DNA of 62,277 nt, the filler included, from Diploschistes diacapsis (lineage: Eukaryota), in NCBI GenBank assembly GCA_023645945.1. It is 7 parts of 7 records of this genome, joined end to end, with 100 filler letters (N's around TTAATTAATTAA, not from the genome) between each part and the next. Parts side by side here need not be neighbours in the genome. Positions count along the whole stretch, not along the records: positions 28,486 to 56,590 come from JALAIB010000152.1; 6 more parts are not named here. One strand, 5' to 3'. Positions 5,607 to 56,690 of this stretch are shown here, piece after piece. The notes beneath the pieces were generated by a model. The model ran no database searches and was not told the origin of the DNA. It was given only the letters and a program-made list of their open reading frames with translations. Position numbers and translations under genes: made by a program. The stretch's first letter is position 1; each line of letters begins with the position of its first letter.

Positions 5607-5706
5607 NNNNNNNNNNNNNNNNNNNNNNNNNNNNNNNNNNNNNNNNNNNNTTAATTAATTAANNNNNNNNNNNNNNNNNNNNNNNNNNNNNNNNNNNNNN
5701 NNNNNN
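5607..5706. other. Artificial contig linker (N44-TTAATTAATTAA-N44)
   Basis: 100-bp N spacer with an all-frame stop 12-mer. Confidence 0.99.
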
Positions 5707-11309: not shown

Positions 11310-11409
11310 NNNNNNNNNNNNNNNNNNNNNNNNNNNNNNNNNNNNNNNNNNNNTTAATTAATTAANNNNNNNNNNNNNNNNNNNNNNNNNNNNNNNNNNN
11401 NNNNNNNNN
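11310..11409. other. Artificial contig linker
   Basis: N44-TTAATTAATTAA-N44. Confidence 0.99.
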
Positions 11410-17009: not shown

Positions 17010-17109
17010 NNNNNNNNNNNNNNNNNNNNNNNNNNNNNNNNNNNNNNNNNNNNTTAATTAATTAANNNNNNNNNNNNNNNNNNNNNNNNNNNNNNNNNNN
17101 NNNNNNNNN
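17010..17109. other. Artificial contig linker
   Basis: N44-TTAATTAATTAA-N44. Confidence 0.99.
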
Positions 17110-22697: not shown

Positions 22698-22797
22698 NNN
22701 NNNNNNNNNNNNNNNNNNNNNNNNNNNNNNNNNNNNNNNNNTTAATTAATTAANNNNNNNNNNNNNNNNNNNNNNNNNNNNNNNNNNNNNNNNNNNN
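22698..22797. other. Artificial contig linker
   Basis: N44-TTAATTAATTAA-N44. Confidence 0.99.
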
Positions 22798-25694: not shown

Positions 25695-28345
25695 GGGGCC
25701 GGATAGATAGAAGATTGTTGGCGTATGGTTGTGGGGGATGTCAACATCGCATGCGAATCGACTCGCATCTTGCAACGTATTAGGGCTCGCTCATTACTTG
25801 CAAGGGTTATCGTCGGGCCAGCCGTTCTTCGAGCACAACCACACACAAGTGGCTTTAGCCCCAGCATCGGCATATGGGGAATATCGTTGCTCACCGGCGT
25901 TTTGGGAATATTGTTGCACTCTAGCGGCAGACACCTCCTTGCGTAGGTGCCGCGGACACCGTGATTCGTGCGAGACAGCAGAGCTTAACAGGGACTGGGT
26001 GAGTCTTTGAGGACCGAGAGGATACTGTTGGTGTTTGGAGCCATGGTCCAGGGGAAAATAGGGGCTTGGGACGGCTCTTTTGGCACATTTACGGAGGAAC
26101 AAAGATCGCGAAATTGAAAGGGAACATGAAGCACGGTTGCATTGGCTTTGCATAGCGTGGCATCGGGCATGGGATACGAGCAATGGCAACGGCATCGAAG
26201 CATGTGCTGCATAGCTGGGGTAAGGGTAGGACAGGCGCGTGGGCAGTATAGTGGCACGACTGTCTTCGCTGCACTGATATAAATGGCTCATGGATATGGT
26301 TATAGTTAGTGGCTTTTGCGATGGGAGAGCGCAGCACGCAAGCTTGCTTGGGGCGATTTTTGGTATCAAGGAACACAGATATGGAGTGCATGGATGTCTA
26401 GATAGAGATATTGTAGCGGTATTCTGGCAAGTAATGCGAAGGAAGGAAACGAACGTACCTGAGTCTGAATCTAACGCGAGAACGGTGCAGAGATGCGTTT
26501 CGATATCCATCACTTCCCGGGTAGAGAGAGCTATCATAAATAGTTGTCTATTACCTCTGAGGCCTGTGGAATAGCATGGCGATTTCTTCCTGCAACATGC
26601 CCTTAGTCGCTGTACTGTCTTTTTTTTTTATAAAAAAAAACTCATGGTTACGTGTGTATATCGATATTCAGATTCATAATGGGCACCTCTTTTCTTTGGA
26701 TATACTAGCTTACATGCCTCAATTTTCAGTTCTCAACTGAGGATGGTCGTGTGGTCTCGCGTATCTATGTATCAGTTTAATTCAATATCCACACAATCCA
26801 ATATTATTATTGATCTTTTAGATATCGCAGTTGAAAATAGAGCCTAAAATTAATACCCTACCACATATAACTACTTCTACTATATATTATTCCGTATACT
26901 TCCTGCTTACACCCACGATAGTGTTGTGATCGTCATTATTCTTATGCGTTAGTGAGTAAAGTATCCTTTACCCGCATGGGCGTAGAGTGTTCATCCCCCA
27001 TGGAGGTACTGCACATGTGGTACGGAGGAATGGAGCTGGCTTGAGGATCGGGGATTCTTCGACCGCAAGCGTACGTACGATATAGAGGAGAAGGTATCGG
27101 TAAGTGTGGTATCGGTAGGCCCCTTCTACATATATCAAAGGCTCTGTGTAGGAGGTTTCCGTCTCCATGCAACAACACTCGATCTAGAAATACCCGTTGT
27201 TATACGGATAGAGCTTCCTATGCTCCTCTCTTCCCCTTTTTCCCCTTGCTGATTACTTCTCTTGCCCCTTCTGTGCCTTCCTTATCTTCGTACCTACTAC
27301 CCCTCCTACGTCTTCCATCACCGTCACTGTCACACGTACCGTCTCTCAGTTGAATCTCGACTACCTATAACCCCGCTCCACTCCCGTGCCAACTCCGTGT
27401 GCTTCTCGCTGCTGTCTTGCTTGCTTGCCTGCTTTTAGCTATCATCCGTATCGCTTATCGAGCCTCCGCCCCGTAATCAAATATCCGATATCCAGCATCA
27501 TGCAGGGTTCCAGGGTGATAGCAAGGTCGATGGAGGCTACAGACTCGAACGTGACACGGACTCGAACGTGGAGGTGGAAAGAAGGGGGGGATGGAACGGG
27601 GGCTGTCCGAGGCCATACACAAATACATATACCTACCCTACTCCCATCTCACGAAGCACATGTATTCCACCTACCCTATACCGTGTTTGTCCCCAACAAC
27701 CAAAATCGATTTTCAGGTCCGGAGGAATTTCGCAACCACAATCCCAGCGCTCCCGCCGCGCCTGCCAACCCGCCAACCATGGGGGACGGAACAGAACAGA
27801 ATCGAGGAGCGGCAAAGACGGCAAGCGAATCAAAACAGAGGGGACAGAAACGGAAAAAGCTCGCAGACGGAGCGGCAAAAGACCCTGCGTACCGCGATGC
27901 CAAACGCACCGCATCTCTCCCCCCCCTCTCCTTCTCCGCATCGGGGGGCCTCTCTCTCCTCTCAACAACACCCACCTCGATCTCCTCCGCCTCTCAGGCG
28001 CCCGTCGCACTGCTACTACTACTCCGGTACCGCGGCGAGAGCCCTGCGTGACTCGCGAGCCGCGTGAGCTGCTATATACTTCGGCCGGCTGGCTTTGCTG
28101 CCCGCCTTTGCACCTTCGGCGCTAGGCACAAGGGCTACTACGCGTACAGTTACTGAGCACGGAGGGGACTGGGGGGCATGTGGAGATTGGATGCGGCACG
28201 GCTGCTTCTCTTTTCTTCTTCTTCTTCTTCTTTTTACTGTGCTTGCCTGCGAGGCTGGGATGGGGTCGAAGGAGGGACGGAGGGCTGGGCTGGAGCGAGG
28301 CTTGTATCGACCTACGTTGTTGTTGTTGTTGTGGGTACGAGGGAG

Positions 28346-28385
28346 AGAGGAGAGGAGAGGAGAGGAGAGGAGAGGAGAGGAGAGG
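28346..28385. repeat. (AGAGG)8 microsatellite at the contig end
   Basis: Read directly; likely cause of the assembly break. Confidence 0.9.
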
Positions 28386-28485
28386 NNNNNNNNNNNNNNN
28401 NNNNNNNNNNNNNNNNNNNNNNNNNNNNNTTAATTAATTAANNNNNNNNNNNNNNNNNNNNNNNNNNNNNNNNNNNNNNNNNNNN
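28386..28485. other. Artificial contig linker
   Basis: N44-TTAATTAATTAA-N44. Confidence 0.99.
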
Positions 28486-29562
28486 ATATTATTCCGTTTT
28501 ATCTACAATAGATATAATAGATTTTCGATTCCGAGAACGTTTCTAGGCTACGTTCGCCGTAGGCCTAAAAGATTCTATTTATGGACGGTTACGAGAGCTA
28601 TTTCTCGCTGTCGTTCCTAAATTAGATAACGGATAGGAGGATTCTGGCGATATATTTGCCAGCGTATACTTCTCACGTCCTTTAACTTCTAGATATTGGC
28701 TTATTTAGTTTATTTACGTATATTTATAAGGAGCGAATCGGGACGCTATTATAATATAACATTATTTATATTAATAAATACTTTTTTTTTAAGATTCTTA
28801 TTAACGCTCGAATAAATATTTATATTATTAAAAACGCTCGCGTCGCGTAAAAGAACGTCGGTATCAAGTTCTTCGATTTTTTTAAACCGATTTTTAAGAT
28901 TCTCGGCGCCGTCGACGACCTTTCTAACGCTTTTAAAGCTCGTTATATTTTACTTACGATACCTCGAATTCTTCGAAAGATAGATCTTTTAAAGAATTCG
29001 ATTTTAAACTTTCGGTAGAAGCTTAAAATGCCCCGAAACTTCCTTAAGATAACCAAAACGGCTAAGGAAGTTCTTATAGAAATTACGTTTCTGGCGATAA
29101 AAAATAAAAAGTTTAAAAAGGTCTCGATATATCGTTAGAAACGTAAACGTATTATTATAATTATAAGAAATAAATTTTTAATTTTTATAAAAATTATTAA
29201 CGCGCGTTAAACGAAAGAATAAATACTTTACGAGATTAATAAACAGGAGAAATAGAAGTAAATTAAAAAAAAAAGGTTGACAGTGCTTTAAACTACTGGA
29301 ATATACAAGAATAAAAAGATAATTCCGAAAAAAAGATTAATTATCTTAAAAAGGCTTCCTATCGTTAACGTCGTCGACGCTGACGATTAAATATAATGAA
29401 ATAAATTTATAAAATTAACTATAACTATTATTCGATTTATAAGACTTTAAATTAATCACTTTAAGAGATATTTTATTTTAAATATTTATTATTGTAGTTT
29501 TGTTATTATATCACGTGCTCGATAACTAGGGTCTGCTCGGGTACTAGGGTCACGACTCTACA
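28486..29562 (+). mobile_element. RIP-degraded pogo/Fot1-type (Tc1/mariner superfamily, DDE_1) DNA transposon, 3' part
   Basis: Very AT-rich. From about 28570 it translates KILFMDGYESYFS...IYLPAYTSHVL*LLDIGLFS, a C>T/G>A-mutated form of ILxxDGHxSH...LPxHTSHxLQPLDVGxF. It ends in a GC-richer terminal segment followed by TA. Confidence 0.85.
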
Positions 29563-29564
29563 TA
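29511..29564. repeat. Putative right terminal inverted repeat with internal 18-bp direct repeats, plus a TA target site
   Basis: TGCTCGATAACTAGGGTC (29516-29533) and TGCTCGGGTACTAGGGTC (29534-29551), then ACGACTCTACA-TA; the partner TIR is beyond the gap. Confidence 0.6.
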
Positions 29565-29636
29565 TTAGAGTTTTATAGATCCCACCTGCCCCACTTCGAA
29601 AGCACCTGAAGCGAGTAAGACAAACACGGCACCAAA

Positions 29637-32600
29637 ATGGTAACGGCTTCTGCCCAACTTGGTTGGATTATCCTTCTTCTTGGTATCCTTTTGCCATTGG
29701 CAGTGTTCTATGACCAGTTGACGAAGCGGATTCCATCACGTTTGCATAAACACGAGGCACCTCGCAGCGAATTTGGAGTCGTGCGAGCTGATCCTTTTGG
29801 CTCTAACACGACAGCGCAAGGGGTAGAGTACGCCAAAGCTCAATGATTACTGCGAGAAATATGTTAATGCTTCGTCTCAAGTATTGTTTTCGTGCACGGT
29901 CTCGGATCTAATCCTGATACGACATGGGGTGTAACGAACACTTCGCCTCAGCCCTCGGACACAGCAACAGACGGGCGTTGGGTTGATCAGTTTTTGCCAA
30001 AGGATATCCCGAAGCAGTTCCACAAGCATGTTCGCATATTCTTCTTCAACTACGATACTTACTGGAAGAGAGACGCAGTGCAGACACGGCTCACGAACGT
30101 TGGTAACACCTTACTTGCCAGAATAAACTCCACCCTACGAGCGACAGACAAGGTGAGTCTGCTTCCCTTTTCGGGTAGTTTGAGTCGCTGATAAAGGTTC
30201 GTTGTCAGGAGCGGACGCGGAAATTGATATTCGTTGGACATAGCTATGGAGGGCTTGTCATCAAAAATGTACGGTTAATCGCCATCTGCCTGCTTATGAA
30301 AAATACTACAATTATATAGCTGATTTAGTGCTTGCTATACTTCCTTGCTGACAGTGTTAGGCACTCGCACAGGCCAGCGCAAATTCACCGTTTGTCAACA
30401 TCGCAGAGCATACCAGTGCGATCTTCTTTCTGGGTACGCCACATCGTGGGTCGACCTTTAGCGCATGGGGTAGCATCGCTGCCCAGGCCCTACGACCGTT
30501 AGGATCGAATCCATCGATCCTCGACGAAGTAGCCTACGATTCGCCATATCTACAAGACTTACACAGCAACTTTGTGCATAGTATAAACAGTGAAATGCAA
30601 ATCATCAATTTCTTTGAAGAGCGCAAGACCAGATTGCTGAAACTCTGGTTCTTACGGTGGGAAGAGTTTGTAAGTGAAAAATCGAAATGTCGAAGCGAGC
30701 TCTAATGTTTAAGGACAGTGTGTTCAAGAGCAATCAGCAAAATATGAAGAAAGAGGAATGAAAGTCCAGAATATCCCGCTTCCCGTAGACCACTACGGTC
30801 TAAACAAGTTTGGGTCTAAAAACGATGCCAATTACAAGATCATTCTCCAGAAGCTCCTCGAGGTCATATCACCCCAAATTTCGCAAAGACAGGTGCTGTA
30901 TTCTGTACCTTTCACAACAATCAATAGCTATACAGAGAGGCCCACATTGTCTCGAGAGATCGAAGAGAAGCTTAACAGAAGCCAGAGCCGTGCCCAGGTT
31001 CCACATGCGCTCGTTGTTTACGGTCTCGGCGGCACTGGCAAGTCACAATTAGCACTGAAGTATGCTGAAACCCACCGAAAAGACTTCAGCCCCATCCTTT
31101 GGATCGACGCAAAGGATGAGGAATCAGTACGATCAAGTTTCGGGCGATGTGCGAGCGAACTTGGATTGCAAATCGAACAGACAAATAAACAATCATTTAA
31201 GCTAACAGATTTGCCAGTAATAATGGCTGTGCGGCGGTGGCTTCAAGAGCGAAGAGTCTCAGATGACGAATGGCTCTTTATTGTCGACAATGCTGATGAT
31301 CCATCATGGGGTATCAAGTGGGTGCTTCCAGACGGTCCTCGTGGAAGGATTCTCATCACTAGTCAAGATACAACGGCCCCAAACCTGATAAAGGGGTCGT
31401 GCGAGGAAATAACCATTGGAATGATGGATCCATTACAAACAAGGACGCTTCTTCTCACGCATCTAAGGTTAGACTTAGGCTCAGACTCGGTGCCGCAGGA
31501 TGTTCTCGAGGATTGTGATAAGGTGTCAGATCAGCTTGGATATCTTCCTCTGGCTGTGGATCTTGCTGGCGCGTATATGGCCAATGATACAGATCGACAA
31601 GCGGCCTTGCGGAATTACTTGGTTAACTACAAGAAACACCAAGACTACTTACTGCGCAGCGAGCATTATCGAGGACTATCTCCGAACGAGAAAACAGTAT
31701 GGACAGTATGGGATACTACACTTTCTAGAATCAAGGCCAGCCATCCTGAATCAAGCATGTTTTTGGGGCTAATTGCACGTTTTCGTGGAGGCGTCGTTCA
31801 GGAAGAGCTATTTCGCCTCGCGAGTCATGGCATCGCGCTGATCAAAGATGAGTTTCTTAACGATAAAGAGCTTCCGCTATGGTTTGTCGAGCTATTGGCG
31901 ATCCAGGGTCGGGAATGGGAGGGCTTCTACTACCGGAATTTTTGCACCATTTTCTTTCGATACAACTTACTGCAAAGGGTAGATGGAGAATGGCCTGGGC
32001 TTATAATGCATAGTTTGGTGCGGTGGCGAGCGATCAAAGACAATCCAGCCTGGCCTTGGCATTTCTGGTGTCTGTTCTTTATGATGGCTGCGGGTGCAGA
32101 ACTCGCGGCTCAGAATGCACGGCCTCATTTCAGAAGACATTTTATGACGCATGTACCGGAGCTTGAGATAGAATCTCTAAATCGAGCAGAAGTCTCACCT
32201 AAACAAATACCACTAGTACTGAGGATGTTTGCAGTAATTTATTATCAAGAAAGAAGATTGAAGGAAGCCGAAGAGCTGGGGGCGCAGGTGATGGAGACGA
32301 GAAAGAAGATATTGGGCGACGAGCATCCAGACACGCTGATAAGCATGAAAGATCTTGCGGTGACGTATGGAAATCAAGGGCGGTGAAAGGAAACCGAAGA
32401 ACTAAAAGCGCAGATAATAGAAACGAGAAAGAAGGTATTAGGCGACGAGCATCCAGACACGCTAAAAAACATAAATAACCTTACGGTGACGTATAGGAAT
32501 CAAAGGCGGTAAAAAGAAGCTAAAAAACTAAAGACGTAGATAATAAAAACGAAAAAAAAGTTATTAAACGACGAGCATTTAAACACGTTAAAAAGCATAA

Positions 32601-33904
32601 ATAACCTTACGGTAACGTATTGGGATCAAGGGCGGTAAAAAGAAGCCGAAAAGCTACACGCGCAGATAATAAAAACGAGAAAAAAGATATTAAACGATAA
32701 GCATCCAGACACGTTAATAAGCATAAATAACCTTGCCTCGACGTATAAGGATCAGGGGCGGTGGAAGGAAGCCGAAGAGCTGGAGGCGCAGGTAATGGAG
32801 ACGAGAAAGAAGATATTGGGCGACGAGCATCTAGACACGTTGAGAAGCATGAACAACCTTGCGGTGACGTATTGGGATCTAGGGCGGTGGAAGGAAGCCG
32901 AAAAGCTAGACGCGCAGATAATAAAGACGAGAAAGAAGGTATTGGGCGACGAGCATCCAGACACGTTAATAAACATAAATAACCTTACCTCGACGTATAG
33001 AGATCAGAGGCGGTAAAAGGAAGCCGAAGAACTGAAGGCGCAGATAATAGAAACGAGAAAGAAGATATTAGGCGATAAGCATCCAGACACGTTAATAAAC
33101 ATAAATAACCTTATCTCGACGTATAAGAATCAAGGGCCGTAAAAGGAAACCGAAGAATTAGAAACGTAGATAATAAAAACGGGAAAGAAGGTATTAAACG
33201 ACGAGCATCCAGACACGTTAAAAAATATAAATAATTTTATAATAACGTATTGGAATCAAGGGCGATAAAAGGAAGCCGAAGAATTAAAAACATAGATAAT
33301 AAAAACGAAAAAGAAGATATTAAACGACGAGCATCCAGACACGTTAAACAACATAAATAACCTTACAATAATATATTAGGATTAAGGGCGGCGGAAGGAA
33401 GCCGAAAAATTAAAAATATAAATATTAAAAACGAAAAAGAAGGTGCTTAATAACGAACATCCAAATACATTAATTAATATAAATAACCTTGTCTCGGCGT
33501 ATAGGGATCAAAGGCGATGGAAAGAAACCGAAAAGCTACACGCGCAGGTAATGAAGACGAGAAAGAAGGTATTAAACGACGAGCATCCAGACATTCTAAA
33601 AAGCATAAATAACCTTGCGGTAATATATAGGGATCAAAGGCGGTGGAAGGAAGCCGAAAAACTAGAAATGCAGATACTGAAAACGAGAAAGAAGGTGCTT
33701 GGCAACAAACATCCAGATACATTAACCAGCATGAGCAATCTAGCGCATACTTACAAAGCGCAGGACCTTAATATTGAAGCTATACAGCTGATGGACACGG
33801 TGATCCATTTTCAGAAAGAAACAATCGGCCCTAGCCATCCACACACAAAGCTCTCCATTTCTACTTTGGCCTCATGGAAACAATCTTTAATGCGGTTGTT
33901 TTAA
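29637..33904 (+). pseudogene. Fungal NLR: N-terminal TM, SesB-like alpha/beta hydrolase, NB-ARC, 12 TPR (42-aa) repeats; TPR region interrupted by RIP-type stops
   Basis: Introns 29828-29881, 30153-30208, 30269-30360, 30670-30718; DIVFVHGLGS, IFVGHSYGGLVIK, FLGTPHRGS, DHYGLNKF; P-loop GLGGTGKS, Walker B WLFIVDNADD, GYLPLAV, MHSLV; first stop TGA at 32384, with the same frame continuing to the natural stop at 33904. Confidence 0.92.
32255..33766 (+). repeat. Tandem array of 12 x 126-bp TPR-coding repeats
   Basis: Unit starts at 32255, 32381, 32507, 32633, 32759, 32885, 33011, 33137, 33263, 33389, 33515, 33641 (RWKEAEEL.AQVMETRKKVLGDEHPDTL.SMNNLA.TY.DQG). Confidence 0.95.
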
Positions 33905-35320
33905 AGAAGCGAGGCAAGGCGGTTCTGAAACGTTAGCTACGGGCGAATCAAAGTAATGTACAATAAACCCATGGGTACTTTAAATGAAAATCAACATGAT
34001 AACTAACTATTTTATTTAAATATAGGGGCTAAAACAAGTATCTCGTGAGTACATTCGAAGGGACCATATGAAGCCACCATATTATTTATGCGTTAGTGAA
34101 GTAGCCGCCCCTTCAGCCTGTTCGCTTCATTAACGCGTTAGCAGGCCATGTTTTTCGCGTCCATGAATAATATGCTGTGAACTATAGCAGCGTTGGCTTT
34201 ATAAAAAAAATGCATGCTTGAAAACAAAAGACGCACTGAGGATCTGAATTGAGGACATGACGAATCGCAGCATGTTAACGCGAGGGGGGGGAGGGGGCTG
34301 CTGTACGTCGCATAGCATGTACACACACCTGTACTTGTTTGTACCAACAACCGTGGGATATTTTTTTTGTGGGTGACCGACGCCCAAACTACCAAGTACA
34401 TTTACATTCGGGAACGTCCCCACCGGAGGAGGTACCTCTGAGATATTGTATATATGGACGGAATACCTTAAAACGAAAATGCGTTGACGCTAACCCACCT
34501 CGCTATACCCCTGCCCATGCTCCCTCCTATCTCCTATATATTCGGGGGTTATGCTACCGGTGGCACCACCATCTCTGTATGTACTGATCCACCAGCACCA
34601 GCACCGGAACAGCAGAACACTCCAACGAATTCAGCTCGCCAAGCGCTTCTCCCTCCCTTCGTTGCTGGGGATGTACCTGCCGTGCCTTGTTGGGAACATA
34701 CATATAGCCACCATCACGGTGCAAGACCCGCTTGTGGGGACAGGGAGGAACTTCCTCTCAACTCTGGCCAGACCATCCATTCGCTCTTCCTCTATCTCTT
34801 GCTCCTCCGGTCCGTCCCCTCTCCGCCTCCCTCCTTGTCCCCCATCTCCCAATTGCCCTCTCCAATGCGAGACATGGGTAACATATCAAAGTCGTGAGCT
34901 CCCTATCCACTCATCTCTCCATCCTGCCACGCTCCTTCCATCCTTCCATCCTTCCCTCCTCTCGTGCTCTGCTCTAGAAGAAATGGTATCCGTATGATAA
35001 AGAGTAACCACTGCACTGATCCCCCACATTGTTGTGCCGCGCCATGCGCCGTGCTTCGAATGCTGAACAAAGATTTCGTGACTTGCGCCTGCTGAATGAT
35101 AATGTTGCTGCTTTGCGAAAATGAAAACAAAACTCGCGGGGAACACAAAACCCAGTAACCGCAAACCAAGTCACTGGTAGGTGTGTATCGTACAGCGCCG
35201 CTCATGCCGTCAAATCCTTCACCATGAGCAGATCCCTCACCTGCTCAAGCTCAACGTGAAGAGGACACCACGCCATCGACCCTCCTCTCCCCCGATCAAC
35301 GGGCATCTACTGCTCAAGGC

Positions 35321-56590: not shown

Positions 56591-56690
56591 NNNNNNNNNN
56601 NNNNNNNNNNNNNNNNNNNNNNNNNNNNNNNNNNTTAATTAATTAANNNNNNNNNNNNNNNNNNNNNNNNNNNNNNNNNNNNNNNNNNNN
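56591..56690. other. Artificial contig linker
   Basis: N44-TTAATTAATTAA-N44, flanked by poly-G. Confidence 0.99.

Follow-up and report, generated by a model that had tools for sequence, protein, structure and literature searches.

The tetratricopeptide repeat (TPR) array of a predicted fungal NOD-like receptor (NLR) gene in the Diploschistes diacapsis assembly GCA_023645945.1 carries 12 premature in-frame stops, and we conclude that repeat-induced point mutation (RIP) has probably struck the apparently homogenised array of this gene, and the array only, leaving a young pseudogene. The gene lies at 29637–33904 (+ strand) of the window, by which we mean the whole 62-kb stretch analysed; the window is chained from separate short-read contigs rather than read as one molecule, and features are not readable across its joints. 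Judged from its sequence, the gene is a fungal NLR in which a putative hydrolase of sesB/PGAP1-like type is followed by an NB-ARC domain and by TPR_10 repeats, an architecture that is catalogued among fungal NLRs in the survey of Dyrka et al. (2014, PMC4986451). Given its 12 stops and an untranslated tail of 1.5 kb, any transcript would be unlikely to yield a sensor-bearing protein, and the locus is most likely a young pseudogene.

Directional mutation of the TPR array

Tandem Repeats Finder reports a period of 126 bp, with 11.4 copies and 0% indels, over 32261–33696. When cut from 32255, the array resolves into twelve 126-bp (42-codon) units in frame with the upstream exon and a 13th, degenerate capping unit, which bears out the twelve repeats of constant length and frame noted in a preliminary description of this DNA. 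Unit 1 (32255–32380, + strand) lies at the edge of the array and has 5 G>A and 2 C>T changes of RIP type; its orthologue is the first unit of P0002, the closest full relative. Units 2–11 (32381–33640, + strand) form a 1.26-kb mutated block with a GC content of 0.38 that holds all 12 premature stops, and inside this block unit 5 (32759–32884, + strand) is nearly un-mutated, with 5/70 targets changed. Unit 12, the capping unit (33767–33892), and the natural stop (33902) occupy 33641–33904 (+ strand); both units are older and diverged, and they are orthologous to the C-terminal end of P0002. Two unit types can be distinguished, with units 4, 6, 7, and 10 set apart from the rest by transversions at codons 35–36 and a few others. 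A 378-bp period that Tandem Repeats Finder also returns was considered as a higher-order duplication and rejected, as the two unit types account for it.

The premature stops are those listed in the preliminary description, all present and in frame: TGA at 32384, TAA at 32510, 32636, 33014, 33140, 33266, 33383, and 33419, and TAG at 32537, 33167, 33293, and 33377, with no further in-frame stop before the natural stop. They are spread over seven units (2, 3, 4, 7, 8, 9, and 10) and recur at the same places, six at Trp codon 2 of the unit and four at Gln codon 11, with one each at Trp codon 39 and Gln codon 41. Given that these stops replace Trp (TGG) and Gln (CAG) codons kept by units 1, 5, 6, 11, and 12 as well as by P0002 and P0003, the direction of mutation is fixed independently.

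Raw identity between units ranges from 58 to 88%, whereas identity after purines and pyrimidines are collapsed is 88–99% overall and 94–99% within units 1–11; nearly all differences between the units are therefore transitions. Identity before mutation is bounded by the same comparison, between 88% (raw, clean units 1 vs 5) and 94–99% (transitions collapsed). Transversion-type variation affects 16 of the 126 columns in units 1–11 and clusters at codons 1, 2, 9, 13, 19, 20, 27, 29, 32, 35, 36, 39, and 41.

Transitions account for 203/248 differences from the majority consensus, 267/326 from unit 5, and 376/421 from a polarised ancestor. The preliminary description had named substitutions not dominated by C:G>T:A transitions as grounds for abandoning a RIP reading, and the opposite is found. 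Taking as reference the positions at which the least-mutated units 1 and 5 agree and counting the other ten units, we find G>A at 171/420 G sites and C>T at 26/170 C sites, against a change of any kind at 21/360 A sites and 11/160 T sites (32/520 A/T sites together). Reverse changes are few (14 A>G and 8 T>C), as are transversions (31 over all sites). A tabulation by dinucleotide context, which had also been proposed, reveals a preference for CpA, with a mutated fraction of 0.76 at TpG (CpA on the other strand) compared to 0.42 at GpG (CpC), 0.36 at ApG (CpT), and 0.17 at CpG. Among missense changes, the most frequent ones (M>I, G>N, E>K, and V>I) are all products of G>A. The RIP-type spectrum is thus directional, C:G>T:A with CpA preference.

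The CpA changes are also asymmetric, with a mutated fraction of 0.76 for CpA sites of the non-coding strand and of 0.20 for those of the coding strand; most events therefore took place on the non-coding strand. This is the wrong strand for transcription-associated deamination. A strand bias is usual for RIP in the Neurospora literature, and Cambareri et al. are said to have found in 1989 that RIP mutations in Neurospora crassa lie mostly on one strand.

The load differs from unit to unit. At the 70 targets, units 2–11 have, in order, 18, 30, 20, 5, 12, 20, 31, 34, 32, and 18 RIP-type changes; in the whole array, units 1 and 5 alone come close to being clean. The preliminary description had regarded repeats 5 and 6 as nearly untouched and the final repeats as intact. 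The first statement holds for unit 5 and fails for unit 6 (12/70); as to the second, unit 11 indeed lacks a stop but has 18 RIP-type changes, and unit 12, at the edge of the array, is older and diverged.

Confinement to the array and the neighbouring relic

RIP indices computed over the window flag only 28251–29500 and 32251–33000, with near-threshold values up to 33500. The gene body (29637–32254) has indices of 0.73/1.28, like the rest of the contig, and the tail 0.67/1.75; the last 138 bp of the gene (33767–33904) and the 3' flank are normal, and the composite index is positive in the array. Along the gene, then, the profile called for by the preliminary description sets a flagged array apart from a normal hydrolase/NB-ARC part and a normal 3' end, and confinement of RIP to the array is well supported.

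The upstream part of the gene is intact, as the preliminary description had stated for its hydrolase and NB-ARC exons and splice sites. Based on reading frames, GT..AG introns, and tblastn of P0003 and P0004, the gene consists of five exons (29637–29827, 29882–30152, 30209–30268, 30361–30669, and 30719–33904, + strand) separated by four short introns (29828–29881, 30153–30208, 30269–30360, and 30670–30718), all GT..AG, and the two homologues match the five exons block for block. The frame is open in the exons upstream of the array, giving 832 codons up to the first premature stop and 1338 codons if the stops are read through. An N-terminal hydrophobic segment and the putative sesB/PGAP1-like alpha/beta-hydrolase, assigned by alignment to P0004, span 29637–30799 (+ strand) and include the motifs GHSYG (30236–30250) and VDHYG (30785–30799). 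The hydrolase exons are 46–56% identical to residues 15–281 of P0004, of which residues 53–208 match the Pfam family PGAP1 (E 6e-7); the single exons of the window alone have no Pfam match in this part. The NB-ARC domain (30953–31588, + strand; Pfam PF00931, E 2.1e-7, 30.9 bits vs a cutoff of 23.5) contains Walker A (GGTGKS, 31028–31045) and Walker B (LFIVDNADD, 31274–31300) motifs. The array is matched by TPR_10 (E 1.1e-35) and TPR_12 (E 2.2e-28) over 33443–33901 and by TPR_10 in unit 1 (E 3.8e-9). Leakage of RIP into the NB-ARC region was assessed in an alignment with 59 homologues at 224 conserved positions. The window deviates at 34 of these, 10 of them with RIP-type changes of which 5 are common to P0002; the remaining 5 window-specific RIP-type changes, set against 2 reverse-type changes, are too few to claim leakage.

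An AT-rich relic of a multi-copy repeat at 28486–29560 bears a RIP signature of its own (GC 0.30), and its inner end is 77 bp upstream of the NLR start codon. In X1, a lichen-metagenome sequencing run, its depth is 1525 compared to 92 in the bin 29500–29660, and several different continuations occur at its boundary (29557–29561). Observed/expected dinucleotide ratios in the relic are 0.25 for CA/TG, 2.84 for CpG, and 1.11 for TA; those of units 2–11 are 0.58, 1.86, and 1.30, whereas ratios of 1.10–1.12, 0.87–1.19, and 0.64–0.73 are found in the gene body, in units 1 and 5, and in the other 22.7 kb of the contig. The relic and units 2–11 thus have signatures of one kind, with loss of CA/TG and retention of CpG, and the array therefore bears the imprint left on genuine repeats in this genome. 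In another lichen fungus, Cladonia rangiformis, RIP is reported together with homologues of RID and DIM-2, in an account that describes genes as "practically unaffected" and boundaries as sharp (PMC12542154). Taken together, the directional CpA-biased changes, the relic-like signature, and the stop at the array edges uphold the earlier proposal that RIP acted on the array.

Two copies of an 18-bp tandem unit (29516–29551) lie at the inner edge of the relic, just before its boundary at about 29560, and the relic may disturb the NLR promoter. The contig that bears the NLR (28486–56590) starts right after a joint (28386–28485), one of six of the form N44-TTAATTAATTAA-N44 in the window, the others being at 5607–5706, 11310–11409, 17010–17109, 22698–22797, and 56591–56690; the joined pieces include five of about 5.6 kb each and one of 28.1 kb. 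Neighbouring genes are ordinary and encode a PAS histidine kinase and an OPT transporter, whose closest named relatives, just 53–55% identical, come from the lichen-forming fungi Trapelia and Xylographa; to judge from these, the host is a lichen-associated member of the Pezizomycotina.

To place the array among its relatives, as the preliminary description had recommended, we collected comparators from metagenome contigs with a degenerate 24-nt pattern for KTVWTVWD, which yielded 22 loci, 15 of them with an assessable 126-bp array; with the NB-ARC protein as query in metagenome contigs, 61 pattern matches gave 0 confirmed loci. The window array departs from all 15 related arrays in its transition/transversion ratio between units (3.1 vs 0.6–1.7), its lowest unit GC (0.28 vs 0.42–0.60), the standard deviation of unit GC (0.069 vs at most 0.056), and its mean collapsed identity (0.94 vs at most 0.92). 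In-frame stops, of which the window has 12, are absent in 14/15 related arrays, and stops in the array only are found in 0/15. The remaining locus, L019 (1–1239), has many in-frame stops at Trp/Gln positions in its NB-ARC part and frame-shifted TPR units; here the whole gene has decayed, whereas in the window the array alone is hit. We are cautious in interpreting this contrast: a clear RIP-type window occurs in the flanks of only 1/22 comparator loci (L010), and the comparators therefore say little on arrays in RIP-active genomes.

P0002 itself is 77% identical and has nine intact, mutually diverged units. Its first unit resembles window unit 1 and its last two resemble window units 12–13, and from this match of the edge units it follows that units 2–11 represent the inner part, apparently expanded and homogenised in this lineage. 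The collapsed identity, which exceeds that of all 15 comparators, likewise makes the array look homogenised before mutation. The predicted proteins P0243, P0244, P0247, and P0254 (51–80% identity) terminate within their first one or two TPR units, and these early ends are probably places where short-read contigs break because the units of an array are near-identical. In that case such assemblies contain too few intact arrays of this type, and only the differences introduced by RIP between its units allowed the window array to be assembled from short reads.

Proposed course of events and competing explanations

We propose the following course of events. The inner TPR units would have become near-identical, giving about ten 126-bp units that are 88–98% alike and 1.26 kb of self-similar DNA, in which a shift by one unit would offer more than 1 kb of homology. 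This is above the thresholds given for RIP of linked repeats, about 400 bp and 80% identity (PMC1805685, PMC13449251). RIP may then have recognised the self-similar stretch before meiosis over one or more sexual cycles, deaminating cytosines chiefly of the non-coding strand and preferring CpA, which on the coding strand reads as G>A (TGG>TGA/TAA, ATG>ATA, GGC>AAC), while a minority of changes would be C>T on the coding strand (CAG>TAG). This would account for the 12 premature stops and the many missense changes, which are confined to units 2–11. RIP would halt at the diverged edge units, where similarity ends, and the hydrolase, NB-ARC, edge units, and flanks would have stayed clean because they are single-copy. 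The process would limit itself as units diverge below about 80%, and the present raw identity of 58–88% fits this expectation. The absence of indels together with the open 832-codon upstream frame suggests that the event is recent; selection on a truncated hydrolase–NB-ARC product, the alternative raised in the preliminary description, is conjectural. The RIP enzymes are the probable agents of the changes, as indicated by the spectrum, context, strand bias, confinement, and match to the relic.

Several observations weigh against this reading. CpC (0.42) is hit above CpG (0.17), unlike the Neurospora order of CpA>CpT>CpG>CpC; successive hits within TGG may inflate the CpC figure. Measured against the majority consensus, the ratio of G>A to A>G is 106:52, inside the range of the comparator arrays (0.65–2.8), and it is no outlier because the majority state in the array is already mutated. 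Of this genome, the analysis covered the 62-kb window; that the host has RID or DIM-2, and that the array is the sole copy, would be assumptions. This allele occurs in one sample only, and in X1 the depth falls from 92 in the flank to 60, 49, 7, and 24 inside the array before returning to 94. The drop follows GC and points to library AT bias; heterogeneity among nuclei, thalli, or alleles is a possible alternative. Finally, uniform RIP would not predict a nearly clean unit 5 amid mutated neighbours. The variance of per-unit changes is 81.8 compared to 10.3 under a column-preserving permutation null, with 0/5000 shuffles as high, and the longest clean run comprises 38 targets (32749–32812; null mean 15, P about 1e-4). 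Either RIP was patchy or unit 5 was later restored from an un-mutated array, a rescue of the kind that Paoletti et al. (2007, PMC1805685) proposed, in their discussion of RIP-killed pseudogenes, for intact WD40 repeats. That a conserved NLR array suffices to trigger RIP, with this locus as its first clean natural footprint and unit 5 as a gene-conversion patch, is a tentative extension that we consider possible but rather doubtful; if true, one allele would display both halves of a receptor-diversification engine, RIP and concerted evolution.

What served as the pairing partner is a separate matter. We lean slightly towards the array's own units over a paralogous array. The alternative, that RIP was triggered by pairing with the near-identical TPR array of some other NLR of this fungus, is unlikely but deserves to be kept in view, given that repeats are exchanged between NLR genes with highly conserved repeats in Podospora, according to a study of that genus (PMC13449251). 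X1 contains contigs that resemble parts of the stretch (of 71, 26 at 95–99% and 15 at 90–95% identity) and shows extra depth on unit 1 (124 vs 92) and unit 12 (144 vs 94), and relatives with 77–80% identity occur in public assemblies. However, 0/23 blastn high-scoring segment pairs lie outside the array within the window, there is little extra X1 depth on the mutated units (partners less than 80% alike would escape detection), and the homology of about 1.1 kb within the array already exceeds the linked threshold of about 400 bp (PMC1805685).

RIP might also be dispensed with altogether, the changes being due to ordinary AT-biased mutation or deamination of methylated cytosines after loss of function. 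A GC>AT bias is general in fungi, and the AT-rich relic 77 bp upstream of the start codon could have silenced the locus. This explanation is nonetheless highly improbable: 41% of G sites have changed compared to about 6% of A/T sites, no indel has accrued in 1.5 kb, the indices are normal and the frame is open in the 2.6 kb of this gene that adjoin the array, and the strand asymmetry at CpA (0.76 vs 0.20) is strong. The low figure for CpG (0.17), the least hit context, argues against methyl-CpG decay, being the opposite of what such decay produces. Recoding of the stops, in which A-to-I editing of mRNA in sexual tissue, as in some Sordariomycetes, restores TAG/TGA to Trp and makes the gene functional at one particular stage, is scarcely credible. 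Stop-correcting sites are mentioned for Fusarium RID (PMC12366691) and 7/12 stops are at Trp codons, but 6/12 are TAA at a Trp codon and would need two edits each, 5/12 are at Gln codons and are not restorable to Gln, and editing of the stops would leave missense changes (G>N, M>I, E>K) in place by the dozen.

That the array is a mosaic of several loci or genotypes assembled from a lichen metagenome is very unlikely, and here the sequencing runs are informative. X1 contains 0.99 of the sampled words and is probably the source sample, so that it is not independent support; among the runs listed as containing the stretch, none is an RNA run. Its exact unitigs form a chain (29532–32320, 32298–32824, 32802–32981, 32958–33107, 33193–33348, 33319–33590, and 33561 onward to 34300), with 33108–33192 absent among the pieces listed. 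This gap and the uneven depth favour an artefact, as do the chaining of the window from short-read contigs and the breaking of unitigs at k-mers common to units. One such break is at a k-mer found in both unit 1 and unit 5, and placing the unitigs of the intervening loop requires that the loop be passed at least once. However, the X1 pieces listed are exact, with 0 other letters and no alternative letter at 10% or more, and they cross unit boundaries; one unitig (32298–32824) carries the end of unit 1, units 2–4, and the start of unit 5, and the junction between mutated and clean sequence is therefore real. The mutations sit inside unitigs whatever the order of the unitigs, and there is no surplus X1 depth on unit 5 and hence no sign in this run of an abundant intact allele.

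In two other runs, X2 and X3, the fraction of sampled words present is just 0.15 and 0.07, respectively. The contigs of these runs gather on unit 1, unit 5, a part of unit 6, and unit 12, with hardly any on the mutated units, and contigs of both runs skip exactly 378 bp, or three units. We considered these contigs as alleles and rejected this assignment, taking them as related TPR genes of other fungi. In X2 (coded organism A), contigs cover the whole gene (29500–34300) at about 84–86% identity, several per place, and differ from the window by 260 C>T and 188 G>A compared to 20 T>C and 63 A>G; they look like RIP-mutated whole-gene copies in organism A.

Comparison with known systems

Where the sensor repeats of fungal NLRs are near-identical, repeat shuffling is regarded as a route to fast diversification. 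Paoletti et al. (2007, PMC1805685) argued that conserved NLR repeats should attract RIP, which may speed diversification; the same account describes a weak signal at silent sites only, suggests that clear footprints are perhaps blurred, and holds that only experiments can settle "WD-repeat triggered RIP". Dyrka et al. (2014, PMC4986451) extended the proposal to TPR and ANK repeats, and a 2026 study of the Podospora species complex, in its treatment of such NLRs, reports an excess of RIP-like polymorphisms outside the sensor domains and still presents the triggering of RIP by long arrays as a hypothesis (PMC13449251). In the full-text literature (supplements and subscription journals aside), we found no allele with a full RIP spectrum in the repeats alone. 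A repeat-only RIP allele supplies the missing natural example of a proposal that has stood since 2007 with no clear sequence proof, and it indicates a cost of the architecture, in that a sensor is destructible within one or a few crosses. Its relevance is mainly to research on fungal NLR evolution and RIP; the host is little studied. The window allele is a clean new instance of a predicted process, not a new principle or mechanism.

A published natural NLR allele is similar in being disabled by stops in one highly conserved repeat, but in the description given it has two stops in one repeat, not ascribed to RIP, compared to 12 stops in seven units here. RIP of linked or tandem duplications in Neurospora crassa shares the restriction to C:G>T:A, the CpA preference, and a sharp limit at the repeat edge, and is described as requiring more than about 400 bp at more than 80% identity (PMC1805685, PMC13449251). 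In the window, by contrast, the "duplication" consists of protein-coding 126-bp units in one gene rather than of a duplicated segment or transposon, CpC is hit above CpG, and one internal unit escaped.

In predicted architecture, the gene is closest to the Podospora anserina Pa_2_10340 type, which likewise combines a sesB-like lipase, NB-ARC, and 42-residue TPR units that are similar to one another and vary at few codons (9, 29, 35–36, and 39 in the window) (PMC4986451). Units of one conserved Podospora gene are given there as about 85% identical in amino acids. Unit number is variable in both, as indicated here by the X2 and X3 contigs that skip three units. The Podospora alleles, as presented in that survey, are intact and polymorphic in repeat number (PMC4986451), whereas the window allele has 12 stops; P0004, the best named Podospora relative, is just 47% identical.

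The nearest parallel in fate is provided by the P. anserina genes NWDp-1 and NWDp-2 (NACHT-WD40), also NLRs with conserved sensor repeats killed by RIP, in which the stops are mostly amber or ochre from Trp/Gln codons and a RIP-mutated repeat adjoins the gene (PMC1805685). In those genes mutation extends over the NACHT domain and over 750 bp or more of each flank, whereas in the WD40 repeats the CA/TA ratios are normal and there is no more than one stop (PMC1805685). The window allele has TPR instead of WD40 repeats, NB-ARC instead of NACHT, and comes from a fungus of a lichen metagenome instead of Podospora. It is, in effect, their mirror image, with the repeats mutated and the nucleotide-binding oligomerization and effector domains clean.

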